Below are positions 5,560 to 32,184 of a stretch of DNA of 32,184 nucleotides, in pieces. Where the stretch lies: positions 1 to 32,184 of the forward strand of contig JAZDKB010000054.1 in assembly GCA_043803405.1 (NCBI GenBank), written 5' to 3'. Under the pieces are notes generated by a model, which was not told where the DNA came from, did no database searches, and saw only the letters and a list, made by a program, of their open reading frames with translations. This stretch comes from Spirochaetota bacterium (GTDB lineage Bacteria > Spirochaetota > UBA4802 > JAFGDQ01). Position 1 is the stretch's first letter, and each line of letters opens with the position of its first letter. Position numbers and translations under genes: made by a program.

Positions 5560-5583
5560 TCTTGTCTCTGGAATAAATTATTT

Positions 5584-6921: not shown

Positions 6922-6932
6922 TTAATTCAGTA

Positions 6933-10536: not shown

Positions 10537-10706
10537 TTGACTACCAGCACAGAACACGGGGCAATCCTCACCAGGCTCGGACATGTGCTTCCCATCACGC
10601 GGTCATAAATCGCGGAATGCCCTATGAATCCCAGCATAAGAAAGTCATATCCGTTATCTTTGATAAATTCGACAATGGTTTTCACTTCATGGCCTATGAC
10701 TATATG
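10533..10706 (-). pseudogene. Universal stress protein (USP) C-terminal remnant
   Basis: Manual translation HIVIGHEVKTIVEFIKDNGYDFLMLGFIGHSAIYDRVMGSTCPSLVRIAPCSVLVVK* matches the USP C-terminal G-x2-G-x9-GS...APCSVLVVK pattern; the N-terminal half and start codon are missing. Confidence 0.82.
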
Positions 10707-10737
10707 GTTTCTGTGCTGTTTATGAGTTTTAATATTT

Positions 10738-12363
10738 TTAAAGATTGGGCATGTTGCTATTTATTAATTCTATGGACTGCACTATATCCTCTGTTTGACT
10801 TTTTTCGTCGCTAAGTATGGCTTCTATCGTAGCCAATTCGTTAACGATAAACCGATATGTCTGGTTTTTCAATTCTTCGATTTCTTTATTCACAATACCC
10901 GTAAGATCAGATGTAATACGATGAAGATTTTTATCAATTTCGTTAGGTATCTGGTTTGCAAAATATTTTTTAAATACGCCTTTATACAAAAACATCGGAA
11001 ATAAAAACCATAGCATATCCAGATGGAAGTCGCTTGCCCGGCTGACCCTCACATCCGGATTTCTTATTTCTTTTATCTCGACCACCCATTCTTCCGATTT
11101 AATTGTAATTCCCAGAACGGATTGTATGCTTTGATTCAGCCTGTCACGGAATGATTTAAGGAAAAACGAATAATGACGCTTCGCTGTTTCCACTATTTCA
11201 ACGAATTTAGGTCTCTCTGCATTCACTATTTTTTTAATTTCAGTTTGTAAAACTTCATTAAGCCATTTTTCATATTTGCGGGATATCTTGAATAAATTTC
11301 CGCGCCATGTTTTATATTCTGCAATAAACTTAATTCGGGCTGAATTACTTAGGTCCTTCTGGTACGGCTGTATATTCTTGAATATTTTTTCTCTTGTCTG
11401 GCTTAAAAAGTTAGTCATTAAAAGAAGAAGCTCCTCCCTAATGAAGTCTATTGTTAACCGATCGCTTAAAATCTGTGTTTTTAATATGCTCCGTTCGCTG
11501 TCCGATTTTCTTGAGACGCTAAGACTTAAGTTTAAATAACTAAGGCATGCCTGAGCGAGAGTATCTATCTTATATTTTAATATCTTATCGAATTCGCCGC
11601 CGAAATCTTTCATTAAAGGAGTAAAGAGTTTATCCTGCAAAATGGTTTGATATTTCTCTCTGTCCTGCTTTGCAGAATAGCTATAGACCGGAACATCGCG
11701 ATCGAATGACTTTTCCAAAGAATTATTTATATAATCGATTATCTCACCTGTCTGTGCGTCGGTGAATAAATCGGCCTTTGTTAATAAAAGAACAATATCC
11801 GGGCTGTACTTCTCGACCTCTTTTAACAAAACTATTTCATTCTCAGCTAAAGGGCGGTCTGCGCTGACAGCAACGATTGCAACGCCTATTTCCGGAGCCC
11901 ATTTTTCAGTGACTTCGCTGTTGTGTTTAAAAATACTACCAAGGCCTGGTGTGTCTACAAAACGAAGGCCTTCATATTGCTTCAATTCCGGTAGTTCAAC
12001 ATCGACCCAGAGCACATCCTTTATGTTTTCAGGGTTTTTTGACTCCGAAACATATGCATCTATCGAATTAATTGCGATTTCCTCAACATGTCCGTCTAAA
12101 AAAAATACCGCGACCTTCTCTTTTTCGCCATACATAATTCTTGTAATGACCGATGTCAGAGGAATTACGCCTGTAGGCAGAATCTCTTTGCCAATAAAGC
12201 TGTTCAGGAAAGAGCTTTTACCTGCTTTAAACTGTCCCAGAACAGCAACATCAATGATTTTATTTTGCGAAAAAAGACCGTCAATAATCTGTATGTTTCT
12301 GTTCAGAGTTTTAATGCTGTGTTTAACACAAATTTCTTTTATGGTTTGCAATAATGTCTGCAT
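10738..12363 (-). CDS. Bacterial dynamin-like GTPase
   Basis: G1 VLGQFKAGKSS, LPTGVIPLT, SESKNPEN, G3 VDTPGLG, G4 TKAD; long helical C-terminus with hydrophobic paddle (MLWFLFPMFLY). Confidence 0.88.
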   Translation of the reverse strand: MQTLLQTIKEICVKHSIKTLNRNIQIIDGLFSQNKIIDVAVLGQFKAGKSSFLNSFIGKEILPTGVIPLTSVITRIMYGEKEKVAVFFLDGHVEEIAINSIDAYVSESKNPENIKDVLWVDVELPELKQYEGLRFVDTPGLGSIFKHNSEVTEKWAPEIGVAIVAVSADRPLAENEIVLLKEVEKYSPDIVLLLTKADLFTDAQTGEIIDYINNSLEKSFDRDVPVYSYSAKQDREKYQTILQDKLFTPLMKDFGGEFDKILKYKIDTLAQACLSYLNLSLSVSRKSDSERSILKTQILSDRLTIDFIREELLLLMTNFLSQTREKIFKNIQPYQKDLSNSARIKFIAEYKTWRGNLFKISRKYEKWLNEVLQTEIKKIVNAERPKFVEIVETAKRHYSFFLKSFRDRLNQSIQSVLGITIKSEEWVVEIKEIRNPDVRVSRASDFHLDMLWFLFPMFLYKGVFKKYFANQIPNEIDKNLHRITSDLTGIVNKEIEELKNQTYRFIVNELATIEAILSDEKSQTEDIVQSIELINSNMPNL

Positions 12364-12395
12364 GATTCAATTCCTTAAAAAATCGAAAAAATATA

Positions 12396-12617
12396 TCAAA
12401 TATTTTTAATAAATAATAAAAATACTACAAAAACAATTATAATCACTATTGTAAACGCAGTTATCGCGTATTTAATAGACATAATGATTTTCTTTTTTTT
12501 CGGTATACCCGGGAAATGACTGTAGCCTTCATAAGCATTAATAAAAGCCGCAATAGCTCCCAGTATTCCAAAAATAGTTCCAAGAACCACGAGACCTGCG
12601 AAAAAACTTACTCCCAT
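12396..12617 (-). CDS. Small two-TM membrane protein, first gene after fluoride riboswitch A
   Basis: 73 aa, two hydrophobic helices separated by YEGYSHFPGIPKKKK. Confidence 0.75.
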   Translation of the reverse strand: MGVSFFAGLVVLGTIFGILGAIAAFINAYEGYSHFPGIPKKKKIIMSIKYAITAFTIVIIIVFVVFLLFIKNI

Positions 12618-12846: not shown

Positions 12847-12925
12847 TAAAAAACCGCCCTTTATGCTAACAATTCCCCTGCAGGAGTCATTAGCCATTGA
12901 GGCGGTTTGGGTGAACTCCATCACC
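12847..12925 (-). promoter_or_regulatory. Fluoride riboswitch A (crcB motif) with overlapping intrinsic terminator
   Basis: Minus strand GGTGATGGAGTTCACCCAAACCGCCTCAATGGCTAATGACTCCTGC fits the fluoride aptamer (GGAGT/ACTCC pseudoknot); AAACCGCC pairs with downstream GGCGGTTT followed by a U-run. Confidence 0.93.
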
Positions 12926-13116
12926 TTAAATTAGTGATAGTTATAAATCTGTAAAATACTAATACATAAAAAGTCATTATTCATTTTTATGTCAAGATAA
13001 TTTTTATCATGTTACAAAATGAAACGTCGGGTATTTTTTCATATTTTAACAAAATAATCTGAATAATATATTGACAGTCATTCAATATATATGCCATGTT
13101 TAATAACATTAAAGTG

Positions 13117-13165
13117 GGCGATGGAGTTCGCCGTTAATCGCTTAAGCTCGCTGATGACTCCTACC
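13117..13165 (+). promoter_or_regulatory. Fluoride riboswitch B (crcB motif)
   Basis: GGCGATGGAGTTCGCCGTTAATCGCTTAAGCTCGCTGATGACTCCTACC; TTGACA at 13071 upstream. Confidence 0.92.
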
Positions 13166-13256
13166 ATAGCATAGAACCATCTAATTACGAATTTATATTC
13201 CGAATAAAAATAGAACTTCCATTCGGCGGAAATGTCGCGTAAAAGAGGATGGCCGA

Positions 13257-13704: not shown

Positions 13705-14982
13705 TCAGTTATTAAATGGATTTTTAAATACCGCAAGTTTGCCTAACTCATGTTCTATTTCCAACAGGCGGTTGTATTTAGCAATACGCTCGCTTCTGCA
13801 TGCGGAACCGGTCTTGATCTGTCCGCCGCCCATTGCAACTGCAAAGTCGGCCATAAATGTATCTTCTGTCTCGCCGGATCGATGAGAGATTACGAATCCC
13901 CATCCTGCTTCTTTGCATAAATTTATTGCTTCAATGGTTTCCGTGACGGTTCCTATCTGGTTCAGTTTTATAAGTACTGCATTGGCCGTCTTTTCCTTTA
14001 TTCCTTTTTCGATGAACTTCGTGTTTGTTACGAATATATCATCACCCACTATCTGGATTTTTTCGCCGAGAGCTGCTGTATGTTCTTTGAATCCATTCCA
14101 GTCGTTTTCGTCAAGCCCGTCTTCTATGGAAACGATAGGATATTTGTCAATCCAGCTTTTATAAAACACAGTCATCTCCGAACTGTTCTTGTTTCCCTGG
14201 CCTGATTTCGCAAGGACATACATGCCTTTTTCGAAAAATGAACTTGCCGCAGGGTCTAACGCAAGGGCAACGTCTTTACCCGGCTCATATCCTGCTGCTT
14301 TTATAGCCTCTAAAATGACTTCGCAGGCCTCATCGTTGCTTTTGAGATTTGGAGCAAATCCGCCTTCATCGCCTACTCCTGTTGAATATCCTTTTTTGCC
14401 GAGTATCTTTTTAAGAGCGTGAAATGTTTCAGCACCATAGCGCAATGCTTCCGCGAAAGAAGGAGCACCGATCGGCATTACCATGAACTCCTGAAAATCA
14501 ACGCTGTTTTCAGCATGTTTCCCGCCGTTTAAAATGTTCATCATAGGTACAGGAATACAGTAAGAAGTTGCAGGGCATAGGTATGCATAAAGAGGTGTAT
14601 TTGCAGTAATTGCGGACGCTTTGGCTAAAGCCATGGACACACCGAGTATTGCATTTGCTCCGAGTTTACCCTTATTCGGAGTGCCGTCTAGTTCTATCAA
14701 GAGATGGTCGATCTCTGTTTGTTTAGACGGGTCCATGCCTACCAGCTTCGGAGCTAAGATATTGTTTACATTCGATACTGCCTTCAGCACGCCTTTGCCG
14801 TCGTAACGTTTTTTATCACCGTCTCGGAGTTCCACGGCCTCATTCTTGCCTGTAGAAGCGCCGGAAGGTACTGAAGAAGAAACTTTGATATTATTATCAA
14901 GCGTCATAAATACTCTGACGGTCGGATTGCCTCTTGAATCTAGAATTTCTATAGCACTGATTGCTTTAATTTTATTATTCAT
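13705..14982 (-). CDS. eno: Enolase (phosphopyruvate hydratase), 425 aa
   Basis: [49 protein letters not shown]. Start at 14982 behind RBS AAGGAG; the longer ORF start lies in the riboswitch. Confidence 0.97.
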
Positions 14983-14999
14983 TGTGTTCTCCTTAAAAA

Positions 15000-15025
15000 T
15001 AAAAAAATCCACTCTGCGGTGGATT
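15000..15025 (-). terminator. Riboswitch-controlled intrinsic terminator upstream of eno
   Basis: Minus strand AATCCAC-CGCAGA-GTGGATT followed by a U-run; upstream TCTGCGGT can pair with ACCGCAGA as an antiterminator. Confidence 0.8.
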
Positions 15026-15057
15026 GTCGGTTTTACTCCTACCGCAGAAAAACACGC

Positions 15058-15106
15058 AGCAGGAGTCATCAGCTAAAATAGCGTTTATGAGGGGGACTCC
15101 ATCCCC
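15058..15106 (-). promoter_or_regulatory. Fluoride riboswitch C (crcB motif) upstream of eno
   Basis: Minus strand GGGGATGGAGTCCCCCTCATAAACGCTATTTTAGCTGATGACTCCTGC. Confidence 0.93.
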
Positions 15107-15475
15107 GATTATTAATTAACAGAAGTATTATTATAAAGCTTAATAAATTTTTGATCGTCATAAGTCAAGATAAATTTATCTGTCAAAAAGATACTTCGGA
15201 CAACTCCGTTGACCAAATTATCTTCTCTCTTACCTTTAAGTTAGCCTTTCATTTTTAATCTTTCAGCAATACAAAAGATAAGTTGCCGTTTACCTCATCC
15301 CTGCTTCGGGTCGAGATTGCGGTCAAGCCAATACTTTAACGCTGGCTTGCCCGCAAACTCTCCCCTTATTGTTCGCAAAAGGCAGCATGACAATTATTTT
15401 TCTTCTGTAAACGTCTCCCTCCTCACCCCCACCATGGCAAAGGTCGCATTGTGGTGTTTATCCCCTGCACGTGGT

Positions 15476-15839
15476 AGCCAGATTATACTGTAATATATGC
15501 TCTGTTTTTCTGTTTCTATTTTCTTGTGCCGGCCGACATTTTATCTGCTACATGCCCCCTTTAGTGTAAATCTTGTCTATCATTGTTGATGGTCACATTG
15601 ACATAACGCAAGTTATGGTAAGTTACCCTCATTGTTTGTTTTTTCTGCTTCTTAATGCTTTGCTTTCGGGCATCTTCCCATAACTGGCGTTATATCACAT
15701 TGCCGGGCTACGCAATCGCGTTATTTGTTTTCTTATTGCTTCGCCTCGGCAATGAACCTCCCGTAAGTCTTTTTTTACGAGTTCGCGCGGGGGCAGGGCA
15801 GGGTGCTGATCCTCGCATATATTACAGTATAATCTGGCT
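15476..15839. repeat. Perfect 25-bp inverted repeat enclosing 314 bp
   Basis: agccagattatactgtaatatatgc (15476-15500) is the exact reverse complement of gcatatattacagtataatctggct (15815-15839). Confidence 0.92.
15596..15700. other. Two inverted dif/Xer-like 28-bp sites
   Basis: 15623-15596 (minus) acttaccataa-cttgcg-ttatgtcaatg and 15673-15700 (plus) tcttcccataa-ctggcg-ttatatcacat; both have the 11-6-11 CATAA-N6-TTAT layout. Confidence 0.5.
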
Positions 15840-16525
15840 TTTTAAACCCCACCCGCCCAGTCGGGCAATTCGTATATCTTCCTAAAGCGGGTTCGTGCCG
15901 CACGTCCGTGTGCGGCACTTGCTCGGCTTCCTGCCTCGCAACCCTTAGTCTATCAGTTTTTGTCCGTCTGTCTGCTTTCGTTTTTGCCCTCCTTCCCGGG
16001 TGCAGGGGATAGAGTTTGCTGTTTTTGCTCCGGAGGAGAGGTGGGGGTGAGGAGGGAGATGGGTAGTTCCCGGACGCAGCTTCTTTCGCCGGTGCGTCGC
16101 TTCTGTTTCGCTTGTTTTGTTTTCTTTGCTGTTGCTTCGCTCTTATGCCCGCCCACCCTTTAAATGTAAGTTTTGAAAGCCTGGCCGGTGTCTACTTTTC
16201 TTTTTGTCTTTCTTTCCTGAAAGCCCGCCGGAGTACAGCCCCGCTCATTCCTGGGGGCTTTGGTAAAGTTTTAAAAACCGTCCTGCCCTGGAAAAACCAG
16301 TTCAGGCCGGTATTTTAATCTTCTTTTATTTTTTTCCAGGAGTCCGCGGGGCAGTACACCGGCTTGTCTTGTTAATTTAGTTTTTTTGTGATCCGGCCAG
16401 TCTTTAAAAACTCTCATCGCCCTAAAAGCAGTAAAAGCTAATAAATAGATTTTTTAAAATTTTACTCTTCTCAGATTGCTTTATACAGCGTTTAAAAAAG
16501 TAGCCAAGGGGGAAAGGGCAGGGGA

Positions 16526-16705
16526 TTACTTATCTTCCGGCATGTTTATATTGTGTTTCATGCAGTAAAGGGCGGCTTTCCTCAGAAAGTCCCCGATCTT
16601 AATTCCCTTATCAATGCAGTAATGTGAAATATTTTTGTGTTCCTCAGAGGTGAGCTGCACAGTCGGGCGCTTCATGTTGTCGTATTGGTTCTTCTTATCT
16701 TTCAT
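16526..16705 (-). CDS. Small ribbon-helix-helix (CopG/ParG-like) DNA-binding protein, 59 aa; not in the ORF track
   Basis: MKDKKNQYDNMKRPTVQLTSEEHKNISHYCIDKGIKIGDFLRKAALYCMKHNINMPEDK*, a strand-helix-G-helix pattern; TTGACC-N17-TATAAA ends 6 nt before the ATG. Confidence 0.75.
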   Translation of the reverse strand: MKDKKNQYDNMKRPTVQLTSEEHKNISHYCIDKGIKIGDFLRKAALYCMKHNINMPEDK

Positions 16706-16748
16706 AACTTATTTATATATCGGCAGGTTTGCAGGGTCAATTAAAAAA

Positions 16749-16802
16749 AACGTTTAAACGTTAAAAAAGTTGTTGACGTGTAAACGTGTAAACGTGTATA
16801 AA
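16749..16802. promoter_or_regulatory. Divergent promoter region with AAACGT repeats (probable RHH operator)
   Basis: Palindrome aacgtttaaacgtt and three tandem acgtgta(a/t) units overlapping TTGACG...TATAAA. Confidence 0.65.
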
Positions 16803-16837
16803 TAATCATGTAATAAATCAAACAAGGAGGTATTTAC

Positions 16838-17278
16838 ATGAGCGTCAGTTACAAATCAAAAGAAAACATTCAGGGAATGACCGGCGGCCTTCTGTATTTT
16901 CTTGACAGTTACTGTGATGTGCTTACGGAGTCCAAGGCTTTTAAGGGCGTTAAAAAATGGGAAGGCGAACGCGAAGGATTGGAAGTACTTTTTATTTGCT
17001 GGCTTATGTTCCGCATGTGGGTCGCTAACAAGGTTGCTTACGCTGTTCAGTATAGTGAAAGCGTGGACCTTCATGAAGAAATCCCGGATATAGACCCCGT
17101 ATTTATTGAGCCTTCAGAACTTGCCGCCGATCTCCGTAACCTGAATTACAACATTTACACGAACGGCGGCCAGTGCTGGATGGATCACGAGTGGCATTCT
17201 GCTTTTAAGGAAATAGCCGATCGCATTAAAGCCATTTCGGAGAAGATGCCAGCCGGAAACCTGCTGAGAGTTGTTTAA
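16838..17278 (+). CDS. Hypothetical protein
   Basis: 146 aa; strong RBS AAGGAGG and upstream promoter. Confidence 0.75.
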   Translation: MSVSYKSKENIQGMTGGLLYFLDSYCDVLTESKAFKGVKKWEGEREGLEVLFICWLMFRMWVANKVAYAVQYSESVDLHEEIPDIDPVFIEPSELAADLRNLNYNIYTNGGQCWMDHEWHSAFKEIADRIKAISEKMPAGNLLRVV

Positions 17279-17298: not shown

Positions 17299-17336
17299 GA
17301 GTGAATTTTTATATCGTACGATATAAAAATTCACTC
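17299..17336. repeat. Perfect 38-bp palindrome (terminator and/or binding site)
   Basis: gagtgaatttttatatcgt|acgatataaaaattcactc followed by a T-run. Confidence 0.9.
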
Positions 17337-18695: not shown

Positions 18696-18956
18696 TTATA
18701 ATGAAAGGTTTATCTGCAATGCGTCTGTTATCTTCAGAAATGTTTTGATCGTGTAGTTAGCCCCGTTCTCAATGCTTGACAGCTGCTGCTGTGATACATG
18801 CGCTTTTTTTGCGAGTTCCTGCTGTGACAGTCCGAGCTTTTGTCTTTCCTGCTGAATTCTTACAGCGAACTCCACCAGTTTCTTTTCTCGCAGGTAGCCT
18901 TCTTTGAAGGCCGGATTCTTTAATTGTTTATCTAAGTATTCTTTATGTGTCTGCAT
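18696..18956 (-). CDS. XRE-family HTH antitoxin (HigA-like)
   Basis: RQKLGLSQQELAKKAHVSQQQLSSIENG; directly downstream of a RelE-like toxin. Confidence 0.88.
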   Translation of the reverse strand: MQTHKEYLDKQLKNPAFKEGYLREKKLVEFAVRIQQERQKLGLSQQELAKKAHVSQQQLSSIENGANYTIKTFLKITDALQINLSL

Positions 18957-18965
18957 ATTTTACCT

Positions 18966-19349
18966 CTATTGCATTGTCTGCTTTTCAAAATCGTTTAAAG
19001 TCTTAAATCTTTTCGTAAAATCATTCCTGTACTTTTTTGCTCTCTCTATTTCGCTTTTCGGTACTGCTGAACTTTTTTTTGTGAACGAATGCGTCAGGAT
19101 TATGTAATTCTGAAAAACGAAAAAATAAAGTATTCTTTCCTGCTTTCCGGAAAGCTTTACTCTCAGCTCGTGTATCCCATCCTCAAGCAGGTCTGCGAAT
19201 GGCCTCGGAAGAGTAGGCCCCTGTTCTTCAAGGATCGTGATCCACGCCAGAACTTTCTGCCTGTTCTTTTCAGGCAGCTTGTCCAGGTATTCCCCGATAT
19301 CACATTCTTTACCTGCGGTCGTGTAGTAGTATACTTTCCATTTCTGCAT
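18966..19349 (-). CDS. RelE/ParE-superfamily toxin (HigB/Gp49-like)
   Basis: LEEQGPTLPRP, GIHELRVK, RILYFF, ILTHSFTKKS...PKSEIERAK. Confidence 0.9.
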   Translation of the reverse strand: MQKWKVYYYTTAGKECDIGEYLDKLPEKNRQKVLAWITILEEQGPTLPRPFADLLEDGIHELRVKLSGKQERILYFFVFQNYIILTHSFTKKSSAVPKSEIERAKKYRNDFTKRFKTLNDFEKQTMQ

Positions 19350-19383: not shown

Positions 19384-19580
19384 GCAGTTATATCCCTTTA
19401 TTTGTTAATTTTTTTCATGAGACATAAAATATATTATCAGAACAAAAAAATATAAATGTTTAGTTTTATTTGTATAAACCCGCCGTCCCAATCCCGCCAA
19501 CATTTTTAATAGAAATCAGTGCAAAAAAAATTTTTGCAGCAAAATTGCGATACCAGTTTGCAAAAATTGTATTTATTTAA

Positions 19581-19646
19581 ATTTCGCAAAAATACGTTGC
19601 GAAATTTATTTTTGTTGACATTTCGCAATAAGTATTATTATGTCTC
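19581..19646 (+). promoter_or_regulatory. parA promoter/operator region
   Basis: Inverted repeat atttcgcaa-N7-ttgcgaaat, a further tttcgcaa copy and TTGACA at 19615. Confidence 0.55.
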
Positions 19647-19665
19647 CTTAAAAAGGAGGAAGCGT

Positions 19666-20592
19666 ATGAATAACTTTGACCTTCTATCGATTAAAGAAGC
19701 AAGCAAAATTTCCAGGATCCCTGATCGCACCATAAGGGACTGGATGAACGATTCCACTTTACAGACCTATAAGAATGATAACAATGTAATTTGCGTCAAT
19801 AGACGGGAGTTGCTCACCTCTGTTCCGACTGTTCTGACCATATTCAATCAGAAAGGCGGCTGCGGGAAAACATCGCTCAGCGTGCTTCTCGCGGACTATT
19901 ACGAAAAAAAGAAAGCTAAGGTTCTGCTTGTCGATTTTGATCAGCAGGGAAATCTCACCCAGACTTATTTTGCTTATGACGAGCTGAAGGACTCCCTCAG
20001 CCTTTACGATTACTTTGAAAAGAAAACCCCGCTTTCCAAGATGCTGAAAACATATAACGAGTACATAGACATCATACCGTCAAATATAAAACTGTCCCGC
20101 AAGGACAATTACGATATCGATGACCTTGACGCAATGCGCAAAGACTTTGCCCCGGTTTTTAAGAAGTGCAATGTCGTAATCATAGACTGTCCCCCTTCCC
20201 TGAATTCATTTTCAAAATTCGGGCTTATAATGAGCAATTATGTTTTAATTCCTGTGGTCCCGGAGCCATATAATTATGACGGCCTTTTTGAAGTCATGAA
20301 TACTATTAAGCGTCTGCAGAAATTTATCGAAGGCTTTATTGATTACAAAGTCGTTATTTCTGCACATGAACAGAGAATCATCAAGATTCATGAAAATTAT
20401 ATTGAGTTAATACGCAACGAGCTCAACGGCAAGGTTGCCGAACAATCAATACCCAATTTTGTCGGCATTAAGGAACGGAGTTTTCAGAAAAAGAATATAT
20501 TTGACATGTACGATTCCGATAAATCAGTTCAAAAAACTATGGCTCTTCTTAATGAGCTCGATTCGTTTATATACGACCAGAGAGGTGCCTGA
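19666..20592 (+). CDS. parA: ParA/Soj partition ATPase with N-terminal HTH
   Basis: Deviant Walker A NQKGGCGKT, VDFDQQGNLT, IIDCPPSL; N-terminal LSIKEASKISRIPDRTIRDW. Start at 19666 behind AGGAGG. Confidence 0.92.
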   Translation: MNNFDLLSIKEASKISRIPDRTIRDWMNDSTLQTYKNDNNVICVNRRELLTSVPTVLTIFNQKGGCGKTSLSVLLADYYEKKKAKVLLVDFDQQGNLTQTYFAYDELKDSLSLYDYFEKKTPLSKMLKTYNEYIDIIPSNIKLSRKDNYDIDDLDAMRKDFAPVFKKCNVVIIDCPPSLNSFSKFGLIMSNYVLIPVVPEPYNYDGLFEVMNTIKRLQKFIEGFIDYKVVISAHEQRIIKIHENYIELIRNELNGKVAEQSIPNFVGIKERSFQKKNIFDMYDSDKSVQKTMALLNELDSFIYDQRGA

Positions 20593-21392
20593 TGGCAAAG
20601 ACATTTGATTTATCTAAAATGAAACGCGGGAAGAGCCTTTCCGAAGCAGCAGAGAACATTGAGAACATGAGCGAGGAAACATCGGAAAGCATTGACGACC
20701 TTTTGCTCAATCCTCACAAGGAAAAAGTAACCAAAGCAGTTGCAGCGATCCGCCGTGATCCGTTCCTGGTGGACGAAGATAAAAATAAGCTCTTAAGCAC
20801 TCTCCGTTCGCAGTTTGCCGGCCTGTTTAACCTGAATAACTGCCCGAACGATTATGAATCACTCAAGCTTGAGGCTGTATTCCTAGCCGACCTGATGCAG
20901 GTTTCCTTTGTCCTTTTAGGCCAGAGACTTTTAAAAATAAGAGACAATGAGCTTTACCTATCGGATGGTTACAAGGACTTTAAAACATTTGTTGAGAAGG
21001 AAATAAAAATTGGTCGAACAACTGCTTATAATTATATCGATCTTGTTTCTTGTTTTGGTGTTCAAGCGCTTGAACACGGGAATGTCCCGGATCCTTCAAA
21101 ACTGATCCCCCTGCTGCCTGTTCTTAAAGCTAACCGCGAGGATATCCCGACAGAAGATATTAAATCCGAGTTCATTAAGAAAGCAAAAACCTCATCTTTC
21201 CGTGACCTGAAAGGCGAAATTAAACAACTTAAAATTCAGTATGGTCTGGCGAAAGAACCCGATGACATCGACAGGCTCGACAGGGCTTTTAATATTTTAA
21301 TGACTTCGTTCCCTGCAAAGCTTACAGCTGCGGATAAAAAGAAAATCAGAGATTATGTTAAGAAATTAAATTCTCTTTTGGACAGGAAATAG
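20592..21392 (+). CDS. Putative partition partner of ParA (non-canonical; DUF3102/pGP6-D/Borrelia PFam49-like)
   Basis: Coupled to parA (TGATG); LGQRLLKIRDNELY...GYKDFKTFVEKEIKIGRTTAYNYI; no GxRR ParB CTPase motif. Confidence 0.65.
   Translation: MAKTFDLSKMKRGKSLSEAAENIENMSEETSESIDDLLLNPHKEKVTKAVAAIRRDPFLVDEDKNKLLSTLRSQFAGLFNLNNCPNDYESLKLEAVFLADLMQVSFVLLGQRLLKIRDNELYLSDGYKDFKTFVEKEIKIGRTTAYNYIDLVSCFGVQALEHGNVPDPSKLIPLLPVLKANREDIPTEDIKSEFIKKAKTSSFRDLKGEIKQLKIQYGLAKEPDDIDRLDRAFNILMTSFPAKLTAADKKKIRDYVKKLNSLLDRK
21058..21077. repeat. Perfect 20-bp palindrome inside the partition gene; candidate parS-like site
   Basis: gtgttcaagc|gcttgaacac. Confidence 0.6.
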
Positions 21393-21474
21393 TGCGCTTT
21401 ATTTTTTTACTTATACGGTCTGCATGTTAGCGTCTAGCAACTTTATGGCGTATTCGTTTATATATTTTGTGTTT

Positions 21475-21512
21475 ATAAAAAAATCGAGGAGATGTCTCCT
21501 CGATTTTTTTAT
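21475..21512. terminator. Bidirectional intrinsic terminator
   Basis: ataaaaaaatcgaggaga-tg-tctcctcgatttttttat. Confidence 0.9.
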
Positions 21513-21610
21513 ATTATTATGTCGTTCGCCTTTTTCTCGACTCTCCGCCACTGCAGAGTACGCTTCCATACGGAACTTTCATATGGAAACTGATCGATTT
21601 AAAAGACGTT
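21475..21610 (-). ncRNA. Putative structured small RNA (three-way junction) with its own promoter and terminator
   Basis: TTGACA at 21642-21637 with AT-rich -10; stems CGTCTTTT/AAAAGGCG, TCGA/TCGA, TTCCATATG/CGTATGGAA, CTCTGC/GCGGAG. Three G-U pairs all favour the minus strand. Confidence 0.6.
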
Positions 21611-21684: not shown

Positions 21685-22260
21685 TTACCCTTTCTCCACC
21701 TCAACACATGTATACTCGATCTCGGCATAAGCATTCTCGATCTCTATTTCCGTTTCCTGTATACTTAGAGTGTGTTCGTCTATCCTGTCATCGAGTTTTG
21801 CCACCTCAACGGGATCCTCTTCGCCTTTCTTTATCTGGTTCAGTTTCCATATCTTGCTTAAAATTAAGTATTTTCTCTCTATCAGCTTCTTTATCTTAAA
21901 CTCATAGCTCTCTAGTTTCCTGTGTGCCTTTAGTTTTGCTGCTTCCCTCGCGTTCTGCCTGTCGTTTATTTCAAATACCTGGCTTGTGCTAATCGACGCA
22001 CTGTAGTGGTTTTCCTTTTCCTGGAATTCGCTTTCAGTGGCCTGTCTTGAAACCCCTACGTTCGGAAACAATTTAAAAAAATCACTTCCTCTTACAACGG
22101 AAGCTTTTTCAATTCTTTTGTTAGCCTCCCCTACCCTTTTCGTCAGGTCTTTGAGTTCCTGCTGTTTATCTTCCTGCAATGATCCAAAGGCATTAAAATT
22201 AATACATAATAAGACGATAATTGCCGTTATTATTATAATGGGTTTGTTTTTCATATTCAT
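21685..22260 (-). CDS. Secreted coiled-coil protein, possibly a single outer-membrane efflux (TolC-like) repeat
   Basis: Signal peptide; helix, LFPNVGVS...YSASISTSQVFE beta pair, then helices ending DPVEVAKL...IENAYAEIE. Confidence 0.55.
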   Translation of the reverse strand: MNMKNKPIIIITAIIVLLCINFNAFGSLQEDKQQELKDLTKRVGEANKRIEKASVVRGSDFFKLFPNVGVSRQATESEFQEKENHYSASISTSQVFEINDRQNAREAAKLKAHRKLESYEFKIKKLIERKYLILSKIWKLNQIKKGEEDPVEVAKLDDRIDEHTLSIQETEIEIENAYAEIEYTCVEVEKG

Positions 22261-22279: not shown

Positions 22280-22432
22280 ATGAAACCTGTTGTAATTCTT
22301 GCACAGGCAAAAGACCTTCTTTCCTATGTTAAGGGTATTCAGAATGTTGACCGGTTAAGTCTTCTGGAAATAAATAAAAGATTATTGAAAATGCAACTGG
22401 AAACTTCAGAAATTTTAGAAAAAATTGAATAG
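22280..22432 (+). CDS. Possible 50-aa helical protein (not in the ORF track)
   Basis: GGAG RBS then MKPVVILAQAKDLLSYVKGIQNVDRLSLLEINKRLLKMQLETSEILEKIE*; only 19 bp from the divergent start, so doubtful. Confidence 0.35.
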   Translation: MKPVVILAQAKDLLSYVKGIQNVDRLSLLEINKRLLKMQLETSEILEKIE

Positions 22433-22632
22433 TTTTTTTGTTGCTTTTTATTCTTAAATGTCTGAATATAAATGTAACAAAAAGGCCATTTCGACTCAAA
22501 ACCGGTCTGGCTGATATGTTATTCGTGTTATTCCGCGTTTGATTTCATTTAATTTTACTGCCGTTTTGCGTATCTTTTATTATCGTATATTGATATATTT
22601 CATCTTAATTTTTAATTAATTTTTTATCAATT

Positions 22633-24036
22633 ATGAATGACAACAGAAAAATACCGGTATTCTTATCGCATGATGAGGCAAAAAAGCTAATCCAGGGGCT
22701 TCGGAAGGACAGGCATTCTCTCGGATTGTCTCTGATGTATTACGGGGGTCTGCGTGTTTCCGAGATGACTGACCTTCGGATCAGCGATATTCACCTTGCA
22801 CGCGGTTTCATGAAGATAAACGGCAAGGGCAATAAAGAAAGAATTGTTCCCATCAATAACCGTTTACAGAAGGTCATAGAAAGCTATCTCCAAAAGCATG
22901 GCCACAAATTATCTCAGGATTCCTTTCTTGTTGGCGGCGATCGCCGTTCCTGGCATTATGTTGTGAAGAAATATTCAGGCCTTAGCCTTGGGAGAGAAGA
23001 CGTTCACTGCCATACTCTCAGACACAGTTTTGCTACTGGAATGTATATTAAAGGGATCCCGCTTGAACGAATATCCCAGCTCCTCGGCCATTCTAAGCTC
23101 GATACTACCATGATCTACAGTCATATTTCCACAGAACAGAAGCAGGAAGCTGTCCGTTCTCTCGACGATTCACGATCGCGTTTATTCGGCTTGGTGACTT
23201 CTCTTTTCCCCGCAAAAAAGAAGGCCGATATCTCCCTGAAAGATTACGGTTCACTCATAGGCCGTGATAATGAAATCAAAGAATTGACCCGGTATATCGA
23301 ATCCGGTGTTTCCGTAATACTCTCCGGCCCTCCGGGCTGCGGTAAGTCTGCAATTCTCAGAGCTATAAAGAGCTCTGTTTTTATTGAGGAATTTAAGAAA
23401 AAACAAACCTTAATAAAGATCATTCTCTCAGGTCAGGAAATGGGGGATAAGGTATATAAAGAAGCTTCAAAAGAACTTAAAAAACTTTCCATAGATGAGC
23501 TCCTGCAGGAGATAAAAGGTTCAGGGAAGATTGTCGTGATAGACGAGATCACCGGCCTTTCTAAAACAGATAAAAAGACGATTGCTTCACTTGCGGAAAA
23601 TACTGTTGTCCTGGCTGCATCTTCCCGTCCTGCAGACAGGAAACTATTTAAAACATTTATTGAGATCAAACCTTTAAGCCGTCATTACTGCAGGTTCGTT
23701 CTTTCAGAAATAGTGCATATGACTGATCCGCAGGCAAAGGAAAGGATTATTGACGATATCTTGCACCAGGCAAGCAGTAATTTAAAGGAAGCCGAATATA
23801 TCGCAAGTCAGCTGCAGCTCGGTAAATCCTCTGAGGAGATCACTACCGATGTCCGGGAATCGAACCAGGTGTCGATCGCTCCTATTCTCCTGATATTCGT
23901 TCTGTTCTTTGTGGCCTATGTTCTCAAGTCTTATGCCACTTCAATGGTTGCTTTTTCCTATGCGCTCCTTGTCTGCTTCAGGCTCGTATTTTACAGGTTT
24001 ATATTCATGCCGGCAACAAGTAAAAATAAAGGGTAA
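22633..24036 (+). CDS. Tyrosine recombinase catalytic domain fused to a P-loop ATPase and C-terminal TM helices
   Basis: GLRVSE, GKGNKER, HTLRHSFAT, LLGHS, TTMIY (complete R-K-H-R-H-Y); LIGRDNEI, Walker A GPPGCGKS, Walker B IVVIDEI; two hydrophobic C-terminal segments. Confidence 0.88.
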   Translation: MNDNRKIPVFLSHDEAKKLIQGLRKDRHSLGLSLMYYGGLRVSEMTDLRISDIHLARGFMKINGKGNKERIVPINNRLQKVIESYLQKHGHKLSQDSFLVGGDRRSWHYVVKKYSGLSLGREDVHCHTLRHSFATGMYIKGIPLERISQLLGHSKLDTTMIYSHISTEQKQEAVRSLDDSRSRLFGLVTSLFPAKKKADISLKDYGSLIGRDNEIKELTRYIESGVSVILSGPPGCGKSAILRAIKSSVFIEEFKKKQTLIKIILSGQEMGDKVYKEASKELKKLSIDELLQEIKGSGKIVVIDEITGLSKTDKKTIASLAENTVVLAASSRPADRKLFKTFIEIKPLSRHYCRFVLSEIVHMTDPQAKERIIDDILHQASSNLKEAEYIASQLQLGKSSEEITTDVRESNQVSIAPILLIFVLFFVAYVLKSYATSMVAFSYALLVCFRLVFYRFIFMPATSKNKG

Positions 24037-24044
24037 ACAATTCA

Positions 24045-25286
24045 ATGATAGCCGGCACTCATTACGCTTTTTCCTGTCTACTGTGCACTGCGTCCGGCTT
24101 CGATTATCAGACAACGCTTGTTGCTTCTCTTGTCTCCCTGTTGCCGGACATAGATCATCCGGCCAGTTTGATTGGCCGTATCTTTTCAGGTCCGTCAAAG
24201 TATATTCTCAGAAAGTACGGGCATAGAACAGTTACTCATTCCGTCTTTGCCGTTTTGGCAGCAGCTCTTCTGTTCTCCCCTGCCCTATTCTTTAACCTTG
24301 CTTTATACTTTGCTGTTTTGCTTGCTTTTTCAAGTCATATATTCCTGGATATTTTCAACGTTGGCGGGGTCAAATTATTTGCTCCTGTTTCTCAGAAAGA
24401 ATATATTTCCTTCCATTCCCCGGGTCTCCGGATCCTTGTTTCTTCATGGAAAGAGTATGTTTTATTATTTCTAATCGTCTTGTCAGCCTTTATGCTTTCC
24501 GGTCAGGATTTCTCAATGCATAAAGCGGTGCGTTTTGTGAGTAAATATTTCTATAAGACTTATGATGCAGCGATTGTGGATTTTCAGGAAAACAGCAAAT
24601 ATCAATGTATTGCAAAGGTTTCGCATTTCGATCATGCAGGAAGAAAAAAAGTCGAGGAAGAATTCCCTGTCCTGAATCTTTTCCTTGAAAAGGCTTATCT
24701 GCTTAAAGACGGGAATCGGATTATCATAAAAAAAGCTGATATTGATGAGATAGAGATTGAATCAACAGTGAAACCTATCAGTGTTGAGGTCATTGATGGT
24801 AAGGATTTTAGTAAACTGTCTGCTATCCCTGCGGGTTCTTTTATTTCCGGGACAGTAAAGGTTAATGTCTGCCCTCTTGAGATCAAGAACAGCGATTATG
24901 TTAAAGTTGAGAAAGGTCTTAATGAGATTACTTTTTATCTTACTTATGCTACTCCGGATGAGCTTTCTGAGATCATCAGCATAGATAAGGCAAGGAAAGA
25001 CGAGATCGAAAAACTTCAATCCAAGCTATATTCACATCAGATCGATCTGCTCCGTAAGGAAGAAACTTCTTTAAAATCAAGGCTCTCTGTACTCAGGCGA
25101 AAAGGCTTTTACGCGAATTATGCTTCTATCACTTCTGTAAATAACGAGCTTAAAAAAGTTAGATCAAAGATCGAGTCTTTAAAGCTCAGTGTTAGTGCCG
25201 GTGCGGATCAGGATACGTTGAGGGAGATTGAAAAGCTTGACAGGGGATTTAAGGTGGAGTATAAGTTGTATATGTATAGAATGTAA
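24045..25286 (+). CDS. YdjM/DUF457-like membrane metal-dependent hydrolase with a large C-terminal soluble extension
   Basis: GTHYAF, LLPDIDHP, GHRTVTHS, SHIFLD motifs and several TM segments; ~250-aa beta-rich and coiled-coil tail; starts 8 bp after the recombinase fusion. Confidence 0.85.
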   Translation: MIAGTHYAFSCLLCTASGFDYQTTLVASLVSLLPDIDHPASLIGRIFSGPSKYILRKYGHRTVTHSVFAVLAAALLFSPALFFNLALYFAVLLAFSSHIFLDIFNVGGVKLFAPVSQKEYISFHSPGLRILVSSWKEYVLLFLIVLSAFMLSGQDFSMHKAVRFVSKYFYKTYDAAIVDFQENSKYQCIAKVSHFDHAGRKKVEEEFPVLNLFLEKAYLLKDGNRIIIKKADIDEIEIESTVKPISVEVIDGKDFSKLSAIPAGSFISGTVKVNVCPLEIKNSDYVKVEKGLNEITFYLTYATPDELSEIISIDKARKDEIEKLQSKLYSHQIDLLRKEETSLKSRLSVLRRKGFYANYASITSVNNELKKVRSKIESLKLSVSAGADQDTLREIEKLDRGFKVEYKLYMYRM

Positions 25287-29106: not shown

Positions 29107-29484
29107 TCACTGCTCTTTTTTAATCCCCTTCAAATATTCCTTAATCCTCTCCCTATCTTCGTTCTCTCTATCTCCCTTATAGTAAATCTCAATAAATTCA
29201 ATAGACTGTGATTCAACATAGTATGAATATATCACCCTGATTCCGGATTTTGCACCCTTCCCTTTCAATGCTTTACATGCGAATTTCTTTGCTTTGTATA
29301 TCTTTGGTTCTTCAGTATCGAATCCGGGAATTTCAAATATGCTCCCGTTATCAATATTTAATTCATGTAATAGTTTTAACTGTGCGTTTATAAAATTACT
29401 GAGGTCTTCTTCGAGTGTGTTATATTTTTTGATCAGCTTTTTGAGATCTCGGCTAAATTCCGGCAATCGATCGGTTTTAATCAT
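29107..29484 (-). CDS. RelE-like toxin
   Basis: EFSRDLKKLIKKY...LEEDL, GKGAKSGIRVIYSY, FIEIYYKGD; ATGA-coupled to the upstream antitoxin. Confidence 0.8.
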   Translation of the reverse strand: MIKTDRLPEFSRDLKKLIKKYNTLEEDLSNFINAQLKLLHELNIDNGSIFEIPGFDTEEPKIYKAKKFACKALKGKGAKSGIRVIYSYYVESQSIEFIEIYYKGDRENEDRERIKEYLKGIKKEQ

Positions 29485-30272
29485 TCTTCGTCATATTCTC
29501 TCGCTGAGTACTGGTTTGTCCTGTAGAATACCGTCTCATATTCTATCGGCTGGCCGTCTTCCGTTACTTGCCAGGGAACATCCTCATGCGAATAATTACT
29601 GATCTGTCTTGCTGTGTAGTCTGATAACTTGTTTAATACCTTGTCAATGACAGCCGTTTCATTTCCATTCAGTACGCTTATGTCTGCCTGCCGGAGAGGA
29701 AGATATTTTGTCTGTGGATAATTGAAATATTCGCTTTCAACTTTAATAAGGTCTTTATTTTCAAGCATAGTATCGACTATCTTTTTAAATTCAACCGGAG
29801 TAGGTCCGTAATGATTTTTTATGTAAGTGGCTCCGATCAATTGCTCTTCAAACATCTCATAGTAATCAAAATCTATAAAATATAACAGTTTATAAATAAC
29901 AGTTTCTCCAACATTGGATTTGGAACCGACTTTATTCAGTATATAAAGCAACACTTCCTTGAATTTTTTAAGATTCTTTTTAGGTACATTTATTCTAATT
30001 CCACCTTTGTCCCTAGGCTCTATTTCCACTTCTTCTTTTTCAAGGTTGATCACAGGTTCCTTTTTCATATTGAGTAAAGCATCAATCGAAGTGTTGAATA
30101 TTTTTGCAATAACCATGAGTTCATCCGGCGTAAGTTTGCGTTCTCCGTTTTCAATCTGCGAAAGCGTTGGTCGTGATACTTTGATTTTAATTGCCAGTTC
30201 CTGCTGGCTCAAACCTGTCTCTTCCCTGAGTGCTTTTACTTTATTGCCAAGTGTTTTATCTATATTGTCCAT
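29481..30272 (-). CDS. XRE-HTH plus Panacea (DUF4065/SocA-like) antitoxin
   Basis: HTH LSQQELA...SRPTLSQIENGER; KLLYFIDF, YIKNHYGPTP, ISNYSHEDVPW. Start at 30272 behind GGAGG with TTGACA-N17-TACATT upstream. Confidence 0.85.
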   Translation of the reverse strand: MDNIDKTLGNKVKALREETGLSQQELAIKIKVSRPTLSQIENGERKLTPDELMVIAKIFNTSIDALLNMKKEPVINLEKEEVEIEPRDKGGIRINVPKKNLKKFKEVLLYILNKVGSKSNVGETVIYKLLYFIDFDYYEMFEEQLIGATYIKNHYGPTPVEFKKIVDTMLENKDLIKVESEYFNYPQTKYLPLRQADISVLNGNETAVIDKVLNKLSDYTARQISNYSHEDVPWQVTEDGQPIEYETVFYRTNQYSAREYDEE

Positions 30273-30480
30273 TGGCTTTCCTCCATCTTCTCTTATACTA
30301 AATGTAATAAATGTTATAATTCTTGTCAAGCACATGTTAGCTTTTATTACATAATCTCGACTAAACAATAACTCTTCTTAACGCATTATTTTCAATTAAC
30401 ATCTCTTTTATTCTCAATTGTTATTGAAATTTTAATTTAACTTCTATTATTAGTAATAATCCAAACAAAGGAATAGAAAA

Positions 30481-32184
30481 ATGCCGTCACTAAGCTGGAA
30501 TGAGATCAAGACCAGGGCTGTAGAGTTCTCAAAAGAATGGGAAAATGAATCGAATGAAGATGCAGAAGCAAAATCTTTCTGGGATAACTTTTTTAATGTA
30601 TTCGGCATTTCCAGGCGAAGAGTCGCGACTTTTGAAAAGTTAGTTAATAAGTCGGCTGATACATCAGGTTATATTGATCTATTGTGGAAAAGCGTTATTC
30701 TTATTGAACATAAATCCCGGGGGAAAGATCTGGATAAAGCATATAAGCAGGCTATCGAGTATTTTCCCGGCCTTAAAGAAAGCGAGCTGCCTAAATATGT
30801 TCTTGTTTCCGATTTTGCCCGCTTTCGTTTATACGATCTTGAAGAAAGTTCCCAGCATGAATTTGTTATAACCGACCTGGTTAATAATGTACACCTGTTC
30901 GGATTTATTGCCGGATATCAGAAAAAATTATATAAAGAAGAAGACCCGGTCAATATTGAGGCAGCCGAACGCATGGGCAGGTTGCATGATAAGTTGCTGG
31001 AGATCGGTTATTCAGGGCACTTTCTGGAAATCTATCTTGTCAGGCTTTTATTCTGCCTGTTCTCGGATGACACAGGCATTTTTGAAAAAAACTTATTCCA
31101 TGATTATATTGAAACAAAAACAAGTGTTGATGGCAGTGATCTTGCAGCCCACCTTTCAACCCTGTTCTATGTATTGAACACTCCGCCGGAATCGCGATTA
31201 ACGAATCTTGATGAATCGCTCGCTTCTTTCCCTTATATCGACGGCAAGCTTTTTGAAGAGAATATCCCCCCGGCATCATTCGACAGTCAGATGAAGCAAC
31301 TGCTGCTTGATTGTTGCGATCTGAATTGGGGGAAGATATCCCCTGCGATCTTCGGCTCATTGTTCCAGTCAGTAATGGACCCGGAAAAAAGAAGGAATAT
31401 AGGAGGACATTATACTTCCGAGAAGAACATACTTAAATTGATCAAACCCTTGTTCCTTGATGAATTGTGGGATGAATTTTCGCGTGTAAAGAACAACAGG
31501 AATAAGCTTTCTGCTTTTCATAATAAAATTTCAAAATTAAAATTCTTGGATCCTGCATGCGGGTGTGGGAACTTTCTTATTATTACATACAGAGAAATCC
31601 GTTTGTTAGAGCTCGAAATTCTAAAAGTATTGTACTCAAATGAAATAGAAACTGGGCAGCATGTTTTTGAGATCGATGAATTTGAATTATTCATAGTTGA
31701 TGTTGATTCTTTTTACGGTATAGAAATTGAAGAATTTCCAGCCCGTATTGCTGAAGTCTCAATGTGGATGATGGATCATCAAATGAATATGAAAGTATCA
31801 GAGGCATTTGGTGAATATTATTCAAGATTGCCTTTAAAGAATAGTGCAAATATTGTAATCGGTAATGCGTTAAGGGTGAATTGGAATGATATTATGCCTT
31901 CTGGTAAGTTATCATATATCCTCGGTAATCCGCCGTTTATTGGTAAACATCTGCAAAATAAAGATCAGGGCGAAGATACGGAGATCATTTTTAAAGATAT
32001 AAAAGGCTCCGGCGTACTGGATTATGTAACTTGCTGGTATATTAAAGCTGCTCAATACATTCAGAAAACAAATATAAAGGTTGCCTTTGTTTCAACGAAT
32101 TCCATATCACAGGGCGAACAGGTCGGCATTCTCTGGAATGCGCTGTTTAATAAATATAATATAAAAATACATTTCGCGCATAGT
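30481..32184 (+). CDS. N-terminal part of MmeI-family type IIL restriction-modification enzyme (endonuclease plus adenine MTase); continues through the join to 1206, 922 aa in total
   Basis: MPSLSWNEIKTRAVEFSKEW; nuclease motif YIDLLWKSVILIEHKS; GGHYTSEKNI; motif I LDPACGCGNFL; motif IV GNPPF. Missing from the ORF track because it runs off the end. Confidence 0.93.
   Translation, partial: MPSLSWNEIKTRAVEFSKEWENESNEDAEAKSFWDNFFNVFGISRRRVATFEKLVNKSADTSGYIDLLWKSVILIEHKSRGKDLDKAYKQAIEYFPGLKESELPKYVLVSDFARFRLYDLEESSQHEFVITDLVNNVHLFGFIAGYQKKLYKEEDPVNIEAAERMGRLHDKLLEIGYSGHFLEIYLVRLLFCLFSDDTGIFEKNLFHDYIETKTSVDGSDLAAHLSTLFYVLNTPPESRLTNLDESLASFPYIDGKLFEENIPPASFDSQMKQLLLDCCDLNWGKISPAIFGSLFQSVMDPEKRRNIGGHYTSEKNILKLIKPLFLDELWDEFSRVKNNRNKLSAFHNKISKLKFLDPACGCGNFLIITYREIRLLELEILKVLYSNEIETGQHVFEIDEFELFIVDVDSFYGIEIEEFPARIAEVSMWMMDHQMNMKVSEAFGEYYSRLPLKNSANIVIGNALRVNWNDIMPSGKLSYILGNPPFIGKHLQNKDQGEDTEIIFKDIKGSGVLDYVTCWYIKAAQYIQKTNIKVAFVSTNSISQGEQVGILWNALFNKYNIKIHFAHS
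32044..32184. repeat. Terminal direct repeat (copy 2)
   Basis: Identical to 1-141. Confidence 0.97.

Follow-up and report, generated by a model that had tools for sequence, protein, structure and literature searches.

What a tyrosine recombinase does when its catalytic domain is joined in one polypeptide to an ATPase and a membrane segment is the question raised by a gene at 22633-24036 (+) of contig JAZDKB010000054.1 from a Spirochaetota bacterium (assembly GCA_043803405.1), the whole 32,184 nucleotides of which are referred to here as the window. The gene encodes a fusion protein of 467 amino acids (aa), consisting of a recombinase catalytic domain, an AAA+ ATPase and a hydrophobic C-terminal segment. 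It has become apparent that this protein belongs, as one of several subunits, to a conserved module of plasmids, which has a DNA site to itself and extends beyond the single gene that an initial annotation of the sequence had described. On balance the evidence leans towards the module being a compact plasmid DNA-transfer machine, in which processing of the plasmid would fall to the recombinase domain, itself attached to the motor.

The open reading frame (ORF) contains no internal stop, and the frame opens at 22609, only 8 codons 5' of the ATG, so that an upstream core-binding (CB) domain cannot fit. The recombinase catalytic domain (residues 6-178; 22648-23166, +) matches Pfam PF00589 (Phage_integrase) over residues 10-167 (model 2-170/172, E 1.6e-31), while the XerA, XerC and XerD models, all below their cut-offs, align only from profile positions 90-100 on, from which it follows again that the CB domain is absent. 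The initial annotation had held that all catalytic residues are kept, and they proved near-invariant in an alignment of 104 close homologues: counting the rows that have a residue in the column concerned, conservation was 99/99 for R41, 101/101 for K65, 102/103 for H127, 103/103 for R130, 104/104 for H153 and 103/104 for Y162. After a linker (residues 179-207; 23167-23253, +) comes the AAA+ core with its helical lid (residues 208-410; 23254-23862, +), which carries GR..E, GPPGCGKS and VVIDE motifs and conserved R350 and N383, and is matched by P-loop families of Pfam over residues 208-330. In the same alignment Walker A K238 was found in 104/104 and Walker B D304 and D/E305 in 102/102 and 102/103, respectively; the second Walker B residue is variable among distant homologues. 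The last part is the hydrophobic segment (residues 411-460; 23863-24012, +). Across 12 close-clade genes, in which synonymous sites are close to saturation, pN/pS was 0.61 in the linker, the least conserved part, and 0.18-0.37 elsewhere, with the lowest value (0.18) in the membrane part, the most conserved; all of the domains are constrained.

An AlphaFold2 model of the protein (pLDDT 81, pTM 0.46, with the linker at pLDDT ~50) gave a fold match of residues 6-166 to XerA (5hxy, Z 21.8, root mean square deviation 2.2, 161 aligned) and of approximately residues 195-415 to Cdc6/Orc1 (2qby, Z 14.5, root mean square deviation 4.5, 208 aligned), TnsC (7m99, Z 12.6) and MuB (8xvb, Z 12.5). The Walker A and Walker B motifs and the helical lid are all present, and by the features tested the protein is a tyrosine recombinase combined with an AAA+ ATPase and, having no CB domain, is not of the Xer type. 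A sequence search of solved structures with the ATPase-transmembrane (TM) part gave nothing useful. The two membrane helices that had been predicted are seen in hydropathy, with peaks starting at residues 413 (2.83) and 435 (1.79), but the model draws residues 416-458 as a single continuous helix. The segment probably folds back through the membrane as a hairpin and leaves a basic tail in the cytoplasm, to judge from hydropathy, a polar K-S-Y break and the basic character of the tail rather than from the model.

It is also clear that the layout is genuine. The fusion of a recombinase without its CB domain to an ATPase was borne out by the single 467-aa frame with its PF00589 and P-loop matches, and the frame indeed runs into the ATPase without a stop; a contig from another run spans 23007-23226 without gaps, across most of the stretch (23160-23250) where a stop or frameshift might have been lost. 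The case that homologues are always two genes and the fusion peculiar to this assembly is excluded by 98 of the 120 listed homologue clusters (the window's own included), which align over 90% or more of the query with identities of 47-83%. An assembly artefact is likewise ruled out by these full-length homologues and by conservation, and the recombinase and ATPase profiles fall in one open frame in 12 genomic or plasmid sources. Loss of the CB domain alone is already known, from FimB/FimE and from MobK, TcpM and MpsA. No characterised recombinase with the complete layout was found by fold or profile comparison or in the literature searched, in agreement with the initial annotation, and no description of the fusion or the module was found, although mention in a supplement or a subscription paper is possible. 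The main text of a survey of recombinase subgroups (PMC8138268) contains neither 'ATPase' nor 'transmembrane'.

The named full-length clusters of the fusion are from Spirochaetota. With the ATPase-TM profile alone, 703 representatives are found at E<=0.001, of which 215 reach E<=1e-10. Among 100 sequences of 405-570 aa (98 from the ATPase-TM profile list, the window protein and P0118) the catalytic R, R, H/W and Y were retained in 77, the other 23 being fragments, decayed recombinases or proteins with different N-termini. In nine proteins of 420-470 aa (P0133, P0139, P0171, P0185, P0191, P0220, P0239, P0250 and P0260) the N-terminal domain is shortened, non-catalytic and recombinase-like, and in P0187, P0249 and P0264 helix-turn-helix (HTH)-like N-termini stand in its place. 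Distribution is patchy, with the fusion in 16/122 genomes of the order and in 0/6 other genomes of the same family; the contigs fetched for the order-level matches measure <=67 kb and mostly carry ParA too, and terminal repeats were lacking in three contigs of 30-67 kb. A sample of 401 genomes of the phylum gave 107 matches at E<=0.001, just 12 of them strong (E<=1.6e-9, own included) and the remaining weak ones Clp-like P-loop hits. A Bacteroidota sample gave 0/401 at E<=1e-45, a result that is uninformative because three candidates were scored per genome and there was no positive control. Finished plasmids with the fusion are pA5BP1, a 14-kb plasmid of a cultured Flavobacterium, pTS, pSpe, one Flammeovirga plasmid and two Haliscomenobacter plasmids, and carriers reach 164 kb with ParA/ParB. 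An orphan fusion gene lies amid chromosomal-looking genes in G364:C14 (locus L218, 1821-3218); here the partners, the site and four catalytic residues have all been lost together, the sole clear case. A broken fusion gene, with a stop after 135 codons, is found in L005 (817-1224). Taken together, these N-termini suggest that the ATPase prefers a domain that binds DNA as its N-terminal partner.

The window is itself a circular plasmid of 32,043 bp, as follows from a 141-nt terminal repeat (32044-32184, an exact copy of bases 1-141) and an MmeI-type ORF of 922 aa that spans the junction of the circle. Related closed circles are L015 (6,460 bp), G032:C80 (14 kb) and G373:C39 (32.7 kb). Among the 31 window ORFs scanned, none had a Pfam match to a relaxase or to type IV components (VirB4-like ATPase, coupling protein, mating-pair), and there was no type IV match in 34 ORFs of three other closed circles, a chosen subset with small ORFs left out. 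The fusion carriers were typed as non-mobilizable by MOB-suite, whereas pCW3 was typed as MOBM.

The partners of the fusion gene are a TolC-like gene and a YdjM gene, found in 24/33 and 26/33 fusion loci, respectively, most of the misses being contig ends. A caveat that must be applied to these counts is that the 33 loci include near-copies and that many of the TolC-like rows match profiles built from near-copies. In the window the first partner is a TolC/OEP-like single-repeat protein of 191 aa with a signal peptide (21685-22260, -), a probable outer-membrane barrel subunit, and the second a YdjM-family inner-membrane protein of 413 aa (24045-25286, +; PF04307, E 1.1e-22). Between the TolC-like and fusion genes, directly 5' of the latter, is a gene for an amphipathic two-helix protein of 50 aa (22280-22432, +), which is confined to the window's clade, has no family match and lacks a hydrophobic segment. 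On L015 the four module genes are accompanied only by Rep, a ribbon-helix-helix (RHH) gene and one 110-aa ORF, so that the module occupies approximately half of a near-minimal circle and is backbone, not cargo. Differing replicons occur on module circles (L015 2575-3624 and L118 14896-16314), including G2P-type rolling-circle Reps, from which it follows that the module moves between plasmid backbones. On the Flammeovirga plasmid (L121, 10176-11440) the YdjM gene is broken into two ORFs.

The 191-aa protein has two strands and long helices, with Atlas TM of 0.54-0.55 to OEP clusters, and a weak OEP match was obtained for 3/17 members of its family. A sequence search of solved structures gave nothing useful, and profile comparison of the family with seven distant candidates showed no homology. 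A four-copy model scored 0.72 against 0.15 for the best control, with runs sharing at least 94% of contacts and pLDDT of at least 84; the pass mark had been calibrated with two copies only, and was reached by 20/30 solved homo-pairs and 1/23 single chains. In the model strand 39-50 runs antiparallel to strand 57-67 of the neighbouring copy and the long helices lie side by side. The subunits may therefore pack laterally as a barrel wall, as in TolC, although the pass may reflect likeness to solved TolC structures. In the model of the 413-aa protein the YdjM domain (residues 1-150) is followed by an Sm/SH3-like barrel, an alpha/beta domain and a coiled-coil hairpin, a lipoyl domain being absent. 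Its fold matches were weak (TrmB best, Z 9.5; WYL, MscS and Hfq at E>=6e-3), with no Foldseek match at E<=0.001.

The core of the module also exists unfused. A stand-alone ATPase-TM gene (254-343 aa) adjoins a YdjM gene on pL4C, pNWAT01, pALVIN01, p11801_1, pSYSX, pZRK30-1 and the archaeal pTBMP1, and the hosts of such plasmids include Thermus, Nitrosococcus, Allochromatium, Synechococcus, Synechocystis, a fusobacterium and Thermococcus; among the carriers are pSYSX of Synechocystis PCC 6803 and plasmids of Thermus thermophilus. The pL4C operon encodes an OEP protein of 236 aa with one repeat (PF02321, E 1.7e-9, model 1-187/187), and its YdjM protein has a lipoyl/HlyD-like, adaptor-like C-terminus, a weak match (E 0.002-0.024). 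OEP matches were weaker on pZRK30-1 and pA5BP1. The pSYSX and p11801_1 operons include a TrwB/HerA-like ATPase (E 3e-7 and 1.5e-10) and an adaptor-like protein, which on pSYSX gave weak lipoyl/HlyD matches, and a thermonuclease is close by; a pSYSX gene judged TolC-like by eye had no Pfam match. On pAQ5 there is a 171-aa gene annotated as TolC family, together with ArdA, and the ATPase match is a short one only. No TolC-like match was found among the neighbours scanned on pTBMP1, as would be expected of an archaeal plasmid, there being no outer membrane. The transfer locus of pCW3, which holds TcpM, also contains a YdjM-like gene (164 aa; L226, 16483-16977; hhalign probability 98%). Non-mobilizable typing applied to 29/30 and 40/42 module plasmid records, compared with 38/61 CyRepA1 plasmids (Fisher p 1e-4); this was the first of two controls, the second giving 240/456, and the records are not independent, so that duplicates inflate the counts.

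Between the 50-aa gene and the fusion gene lies a three-box DNA site (22456-22500) with the consensus core ACAAAA-N6-TTTTGT. Inverted arms (22471-22482 and 22489-22500) flank a 6-bp spacer (22483-22488), and a third box lies 33 bp 5' of the right arm. The inverted repeat with its variable 6-bp spacer was present in 18/20 upstream regions, and in most loci the site is in the promoter region of the operon. When three near-copies were dropped, the arms covaried within elements at positions 6-10 (48/75 paired compared with 34.8 in shuffles, 0/5000 being as high) and the third box was directly repeated, at 33 bp in 13/15 and with 61/75 agreements against 37.4 expected. Five junction loci outside the defining set had the strict core in four and a variant in one. 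At low scores the matrix also found a copy with perfect 12-bp arms just 3' of the pA5BP1 fusion gene and a copy 5' of the G032:C80 operon. The exact core gave two occurrences in the own genome (3.98 Mb) and two in control loci totalling 1.57 Mb; the site itself is single-copy in the own genome, and a second inverted copy, such as an invertible switch would have, was not found. The inverted arms and 6-bp spacer fit the 6-8 bp spacer pattern of a Xer-type cognate site, which this putatively is. A terminator was also considered, but the terminator scan lists none there.

An outer-membrane barrel and its partner in the inner membrane, an ATPase and a domain that cuts DNA, with its site, all in a backbone module of plasmids devoid of known transfer genes, are most simply read as serving the export of plasmid DNA; transport, its substrate and its coupling to ATP are inferred. 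The elements of this reading differ in strength. The module is very likely an envelope-spanning transport system and its cargo is probably DNA; a direct part for the recombinase domain in transfer is given slightly less than an even chance. In the mechanism envisaged the C-terminal hairpin would anchor an AAA+ oligomer in the inner membrane beside the YdjM-family protein, the outer domains of which (elsewhere fused or a separate adaptor) would bridge to a barrel of half-TolC subunits; six half-TolC subunits would equal one TolC trimer. The ATPase, instead of a CB domain, would gather the recombinase domains at the three-box site, Y162 would cut that site, either starting transfer in the manner of the MOB_M relaxases discussed below or closing the transferred circle, and ATP would drive or license the hand-over of DNA to the channel.

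A wider proposal can be put forward tentatively, namely that these plasmids transfer themselves by a third route, distinct from type IV secretion and from TraB-like systems. It would be a four-gene machine of ~3.5 kb (half-TolC barrel, YdjM protein, AAA+ motor) spread over 'non-mobilizable' plasmids from one archaeon and six or more bacterial phyla, and the Spirochaetota and Bacteroidota would have welded a tyrosine-recombinase relaxase to the motor, one chain finding, cutting and docking the origin. The spread of plasmids that have neither relaxase nor type IV genes has still to be explained, and a module that hardly ever coincides with known relaxases is an immediate candidate. If true, YdjM-family proteins would gain a role, a TolC barrel of single-repeat subunits would be known from nature, and for the first time a recombinase would be both coupled to ATP and bound to the membrane within a single chain; even with a cargo other than DNA, the composition of the channel fits no described system that was found.

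Several observations weigh against DNA transfer by such a machine. Many of the plasmids with an unfused ATPase have an ordinary full-length recombinase elsewhere, so that the core module does not need the fused domain. The recombinase domain has ~37% identity to XerA/XerD and only 26% to TcpM, and a tree made by a quick method, with 27/53 inner branches unresolved and a long TcpM branch, leaves the grouping with relaxases without support and fits a single origin of the fusion as well as several. By type the ATPase belongs with Cdc6/STAND/TnsC rather than with the FtsK/HerA pumps, and there is no second ATPase in the module of the window's clade. Three loci with sufficient flank have no detectable TolC-like gene, and hhalign of the window's TolC-like family with the Thermus OEP protein gave a probability of 1.4%. 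The window's copy of the site is degenerate and the weakest of the set (6/14 arm pairs), and the site was not found in L118, L119, L121 and L122 (the pTS, pSpe, Flammeovirga and Haliscomenobacter regions). Finally, MOB-suite could miss relaxases in these hosts.

The principal rival is that the protein is a membrane-tethered plasmid dimer resolvase acting at the adjacent site in the manner of Cre/loxP or Xer/dif, with the ATPase as a built-in FtsK-style activator or tether and the channel genes merely linked. Low-copy ParA/ParB plasmids need a resolvase, and tblastn found no other recombinase in the window; the nearest relatives of the recombinase domain are XerA and XerD, and there is one site per element beside the gene, with inverted arms and a variable spacer of fixed 6-bp length. 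Such a role is compatible with the transfer reading. As the full explanation it is unlikely, since it leaves unexplained why the same ATPase is accompanied from phylum to phylum by YdjM, adaptor and TolC-like genes and why a 6.5-kb circle with a rolling-circle-type Rep devotes half its length to the module, and Thiospirochaeta pSpe has the fusion plus a separate serine recombinase.

Rather less probable is non-canonical, type I-like secretion of a protein or small molecule, the recombinase fold serving as an autoregulator at an operator or as a resolvase. Efflux and type I systems are likewise built from a TolC-like barrel and an adaptor, the promoter-region position of the site would suit an operator, recombinase-fold regulators exist (MrpR 8a0a, Z 13.7) and the recombinase domain of some homologues has decayed. 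However, an ABC or RND transporter is absent, the module has no conserved substrate gene, least of all on the 6.5-kb circle, TrwB/HerA-like ATPase and nucleases accompany it, and the catalytic residues are kept in the 77 sequences mentioned above.

A filamentous-virus-like element, the ATPase and channel of which extrude coated DNA with the 50-aa protein as coat, is very improbable. The inovirus plan does consist of a membrane ATPase and an outer-membrane pore, and small circles carry a G2P-type Rep (Phage_CRI E 5.7e-6 on L015; REP_ORF2-G2P on pTS). Against this, the supposed coat protein has no hydrophobic segment and is confined to one clade, the ATPase is AAA+ and not Zot/FtsK-like, carriers extend to 164 kb with ParA/ParB, and among the matches listed from two viral-contig scans and 50,697 phage records none was full-length. 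Scarcely any probability attaches to an integrase of an integrative element, assembled in its circular forms, for although the recombinase adjoins a core-type site as int does attP, the junction of the 50-aa and fusion genes is intact wherever readable, the site is single-copy in the own genome and the fetched contigs with matches (16/122 genomes) are no longer than 67 kb and mostly bear ParA. The same is true of an anti-phage STAND-type ATPase with a membrane effector, suggested by STAND-like fold neighbours and weak nSTAND/Avs4 matches on the P-loop, in that a sensor domain is absent, the Avs4 model reaches 17.6 bits against a cut-off of 1500, PADLOC matches are at P-loop level only (best E 1.9e-5, 9-106/412) without partners, and the TolC-like barrel and adaptor would be left unexplained.

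The remainder of the window contains several other features. A ParA and PF49/ParB-like partition pair (19519-21392, +) was identified from profile matches and a probable replication initiator (2067-3524, +) from phrog_18020, replication initiation O-like (E 1e-11). A small RHH-type protein (16526-16705, -) is common to related plasmids, its relative on L015 reaching a NikA-like cut-off; this gene and a 146-aa gene without known family (together 16526-17278) are both shared with several module plasmids. In the non-coding stretch that precedes the RHH gene in coordinate order, long single-strand hairpins (15590-15705 and 16215-16375; z approximately -5 to -6 compared with 25 shuffles) showed no conservation in related plasmids by blastn; they could serve in single-strand initiation, as promoters or within an origin. 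Perfect 19-bp inverted repeats occur at 17299-17336 and at 21474-21513, the latter terminator-like and behind the partition genes. Three fluoride riboswitches (RF01734, 51-58 bits; 12874-12934, -, 13108-13170, + and 15053-15115, -) precede cargo comprising an enolase (13705-15069), a 140-aa ORF and a gene run at 5128-12363 that encodes a dynamin-like GTPase, a phosphatase, three MutS-domain-V proteins and a HIT protein, and the whole looks like a plasmid-borne fluoride-response cluster. Toxin-antitoxin-like pairs are found at 18696-19349 (Gp49/RelE-like plus HTH) and 29107-30368 (a 125-aa ORF plus an HTH-Panacea antitoxin). The related circle G373:C39 (L205) carries as cargo a CBASS-like pair of patatin and SMODS-AGS_C (10159-12422), a type III restriction system and a thermonuclease gene (470-982).

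Comparison with known systems helps to place the module. FimB and FimE are also recombinases of ~200 aa without a CB domain, but similarity to them is weak (PRK09870, E 9.5e-7), they occupy a separate branch of the tree and the fusion has no second inverted site. XerCD-dif/FtsK and the Cre-loxP resolvases are the nearest relatives in sequence and fold and share a palindromic site with a 6-bp spacer and the concept of a recombinase under the control of a membrane ATPase; the fusion differs in its lack of a CB domain, its single polypeptide, an AAA+ rather than a RecA-type translocase, the three-box site and the channel genes. TnsC, MuB and Cdc6/Orc1 share the ATPase fold (Z 12.5-14.5) and are AAA+ proteins acting on DNA, TnsC and MuB with a DNA-cutting partner, but identity to the fusion ATPase is only ~12-14%, and the latter has a membrane segment and a tyrosine recombinase partner in the same chain. 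Type I secretion and tripartite efflux share with several module hosts an OEP-type protein and an adaptor-like protein; the module differs in that its OEP protein has one repeat and not two, in the YdjM protein and AAA+ ATPase inside, in its place in the plasmid backbone and in the absence of ABC, RND and MFS transporters.

Systems that move DNA are of greater relevance. Among plasmid or ICE modules of membrane proteins and an ATPase, the pT26-2 core module has been proposed to transport DNA although it lacks classical type IV secretion (PMC6972569, in the main text of which the word 'hydrolase' is absent), and the Thermus transjugation protein TdtA has been reported to do likewise; by their descriptions the ATPases of both are HerA/VirB4-like, unlike that of the module. 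The relaxases MobK, TcpM and MpsA consist of a tyrosine-recombinase catalytic domain without arm-binding (AB) and CB domains (PMC8152469), and recombinase-like relaxases have been described as the class MOB_M (bioRxiv 10.64898/2026.01.13.699239). The fusion resembles these in having the catalytic domain only, AB and CB being missing, and the pCW3 locus shares its YdjM-like gene. However, MOB_M relaxases are soluble proteins delivering to a type IV system that has an FtsK-like coupling protein, whereas the fusion combines an AAA+ ATPase with a membrane segment, has the low identity to TcpM given above and resides on a plasmid without type IV genes. By the features tested the module lies outside type I secretion, type IV conjugation and the inoviruses; its composition matches none of the systems compared, and it is apparently undescribed. 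By analogy, it would work most like a set of relaxase, coupling protein and channel built from other parts.

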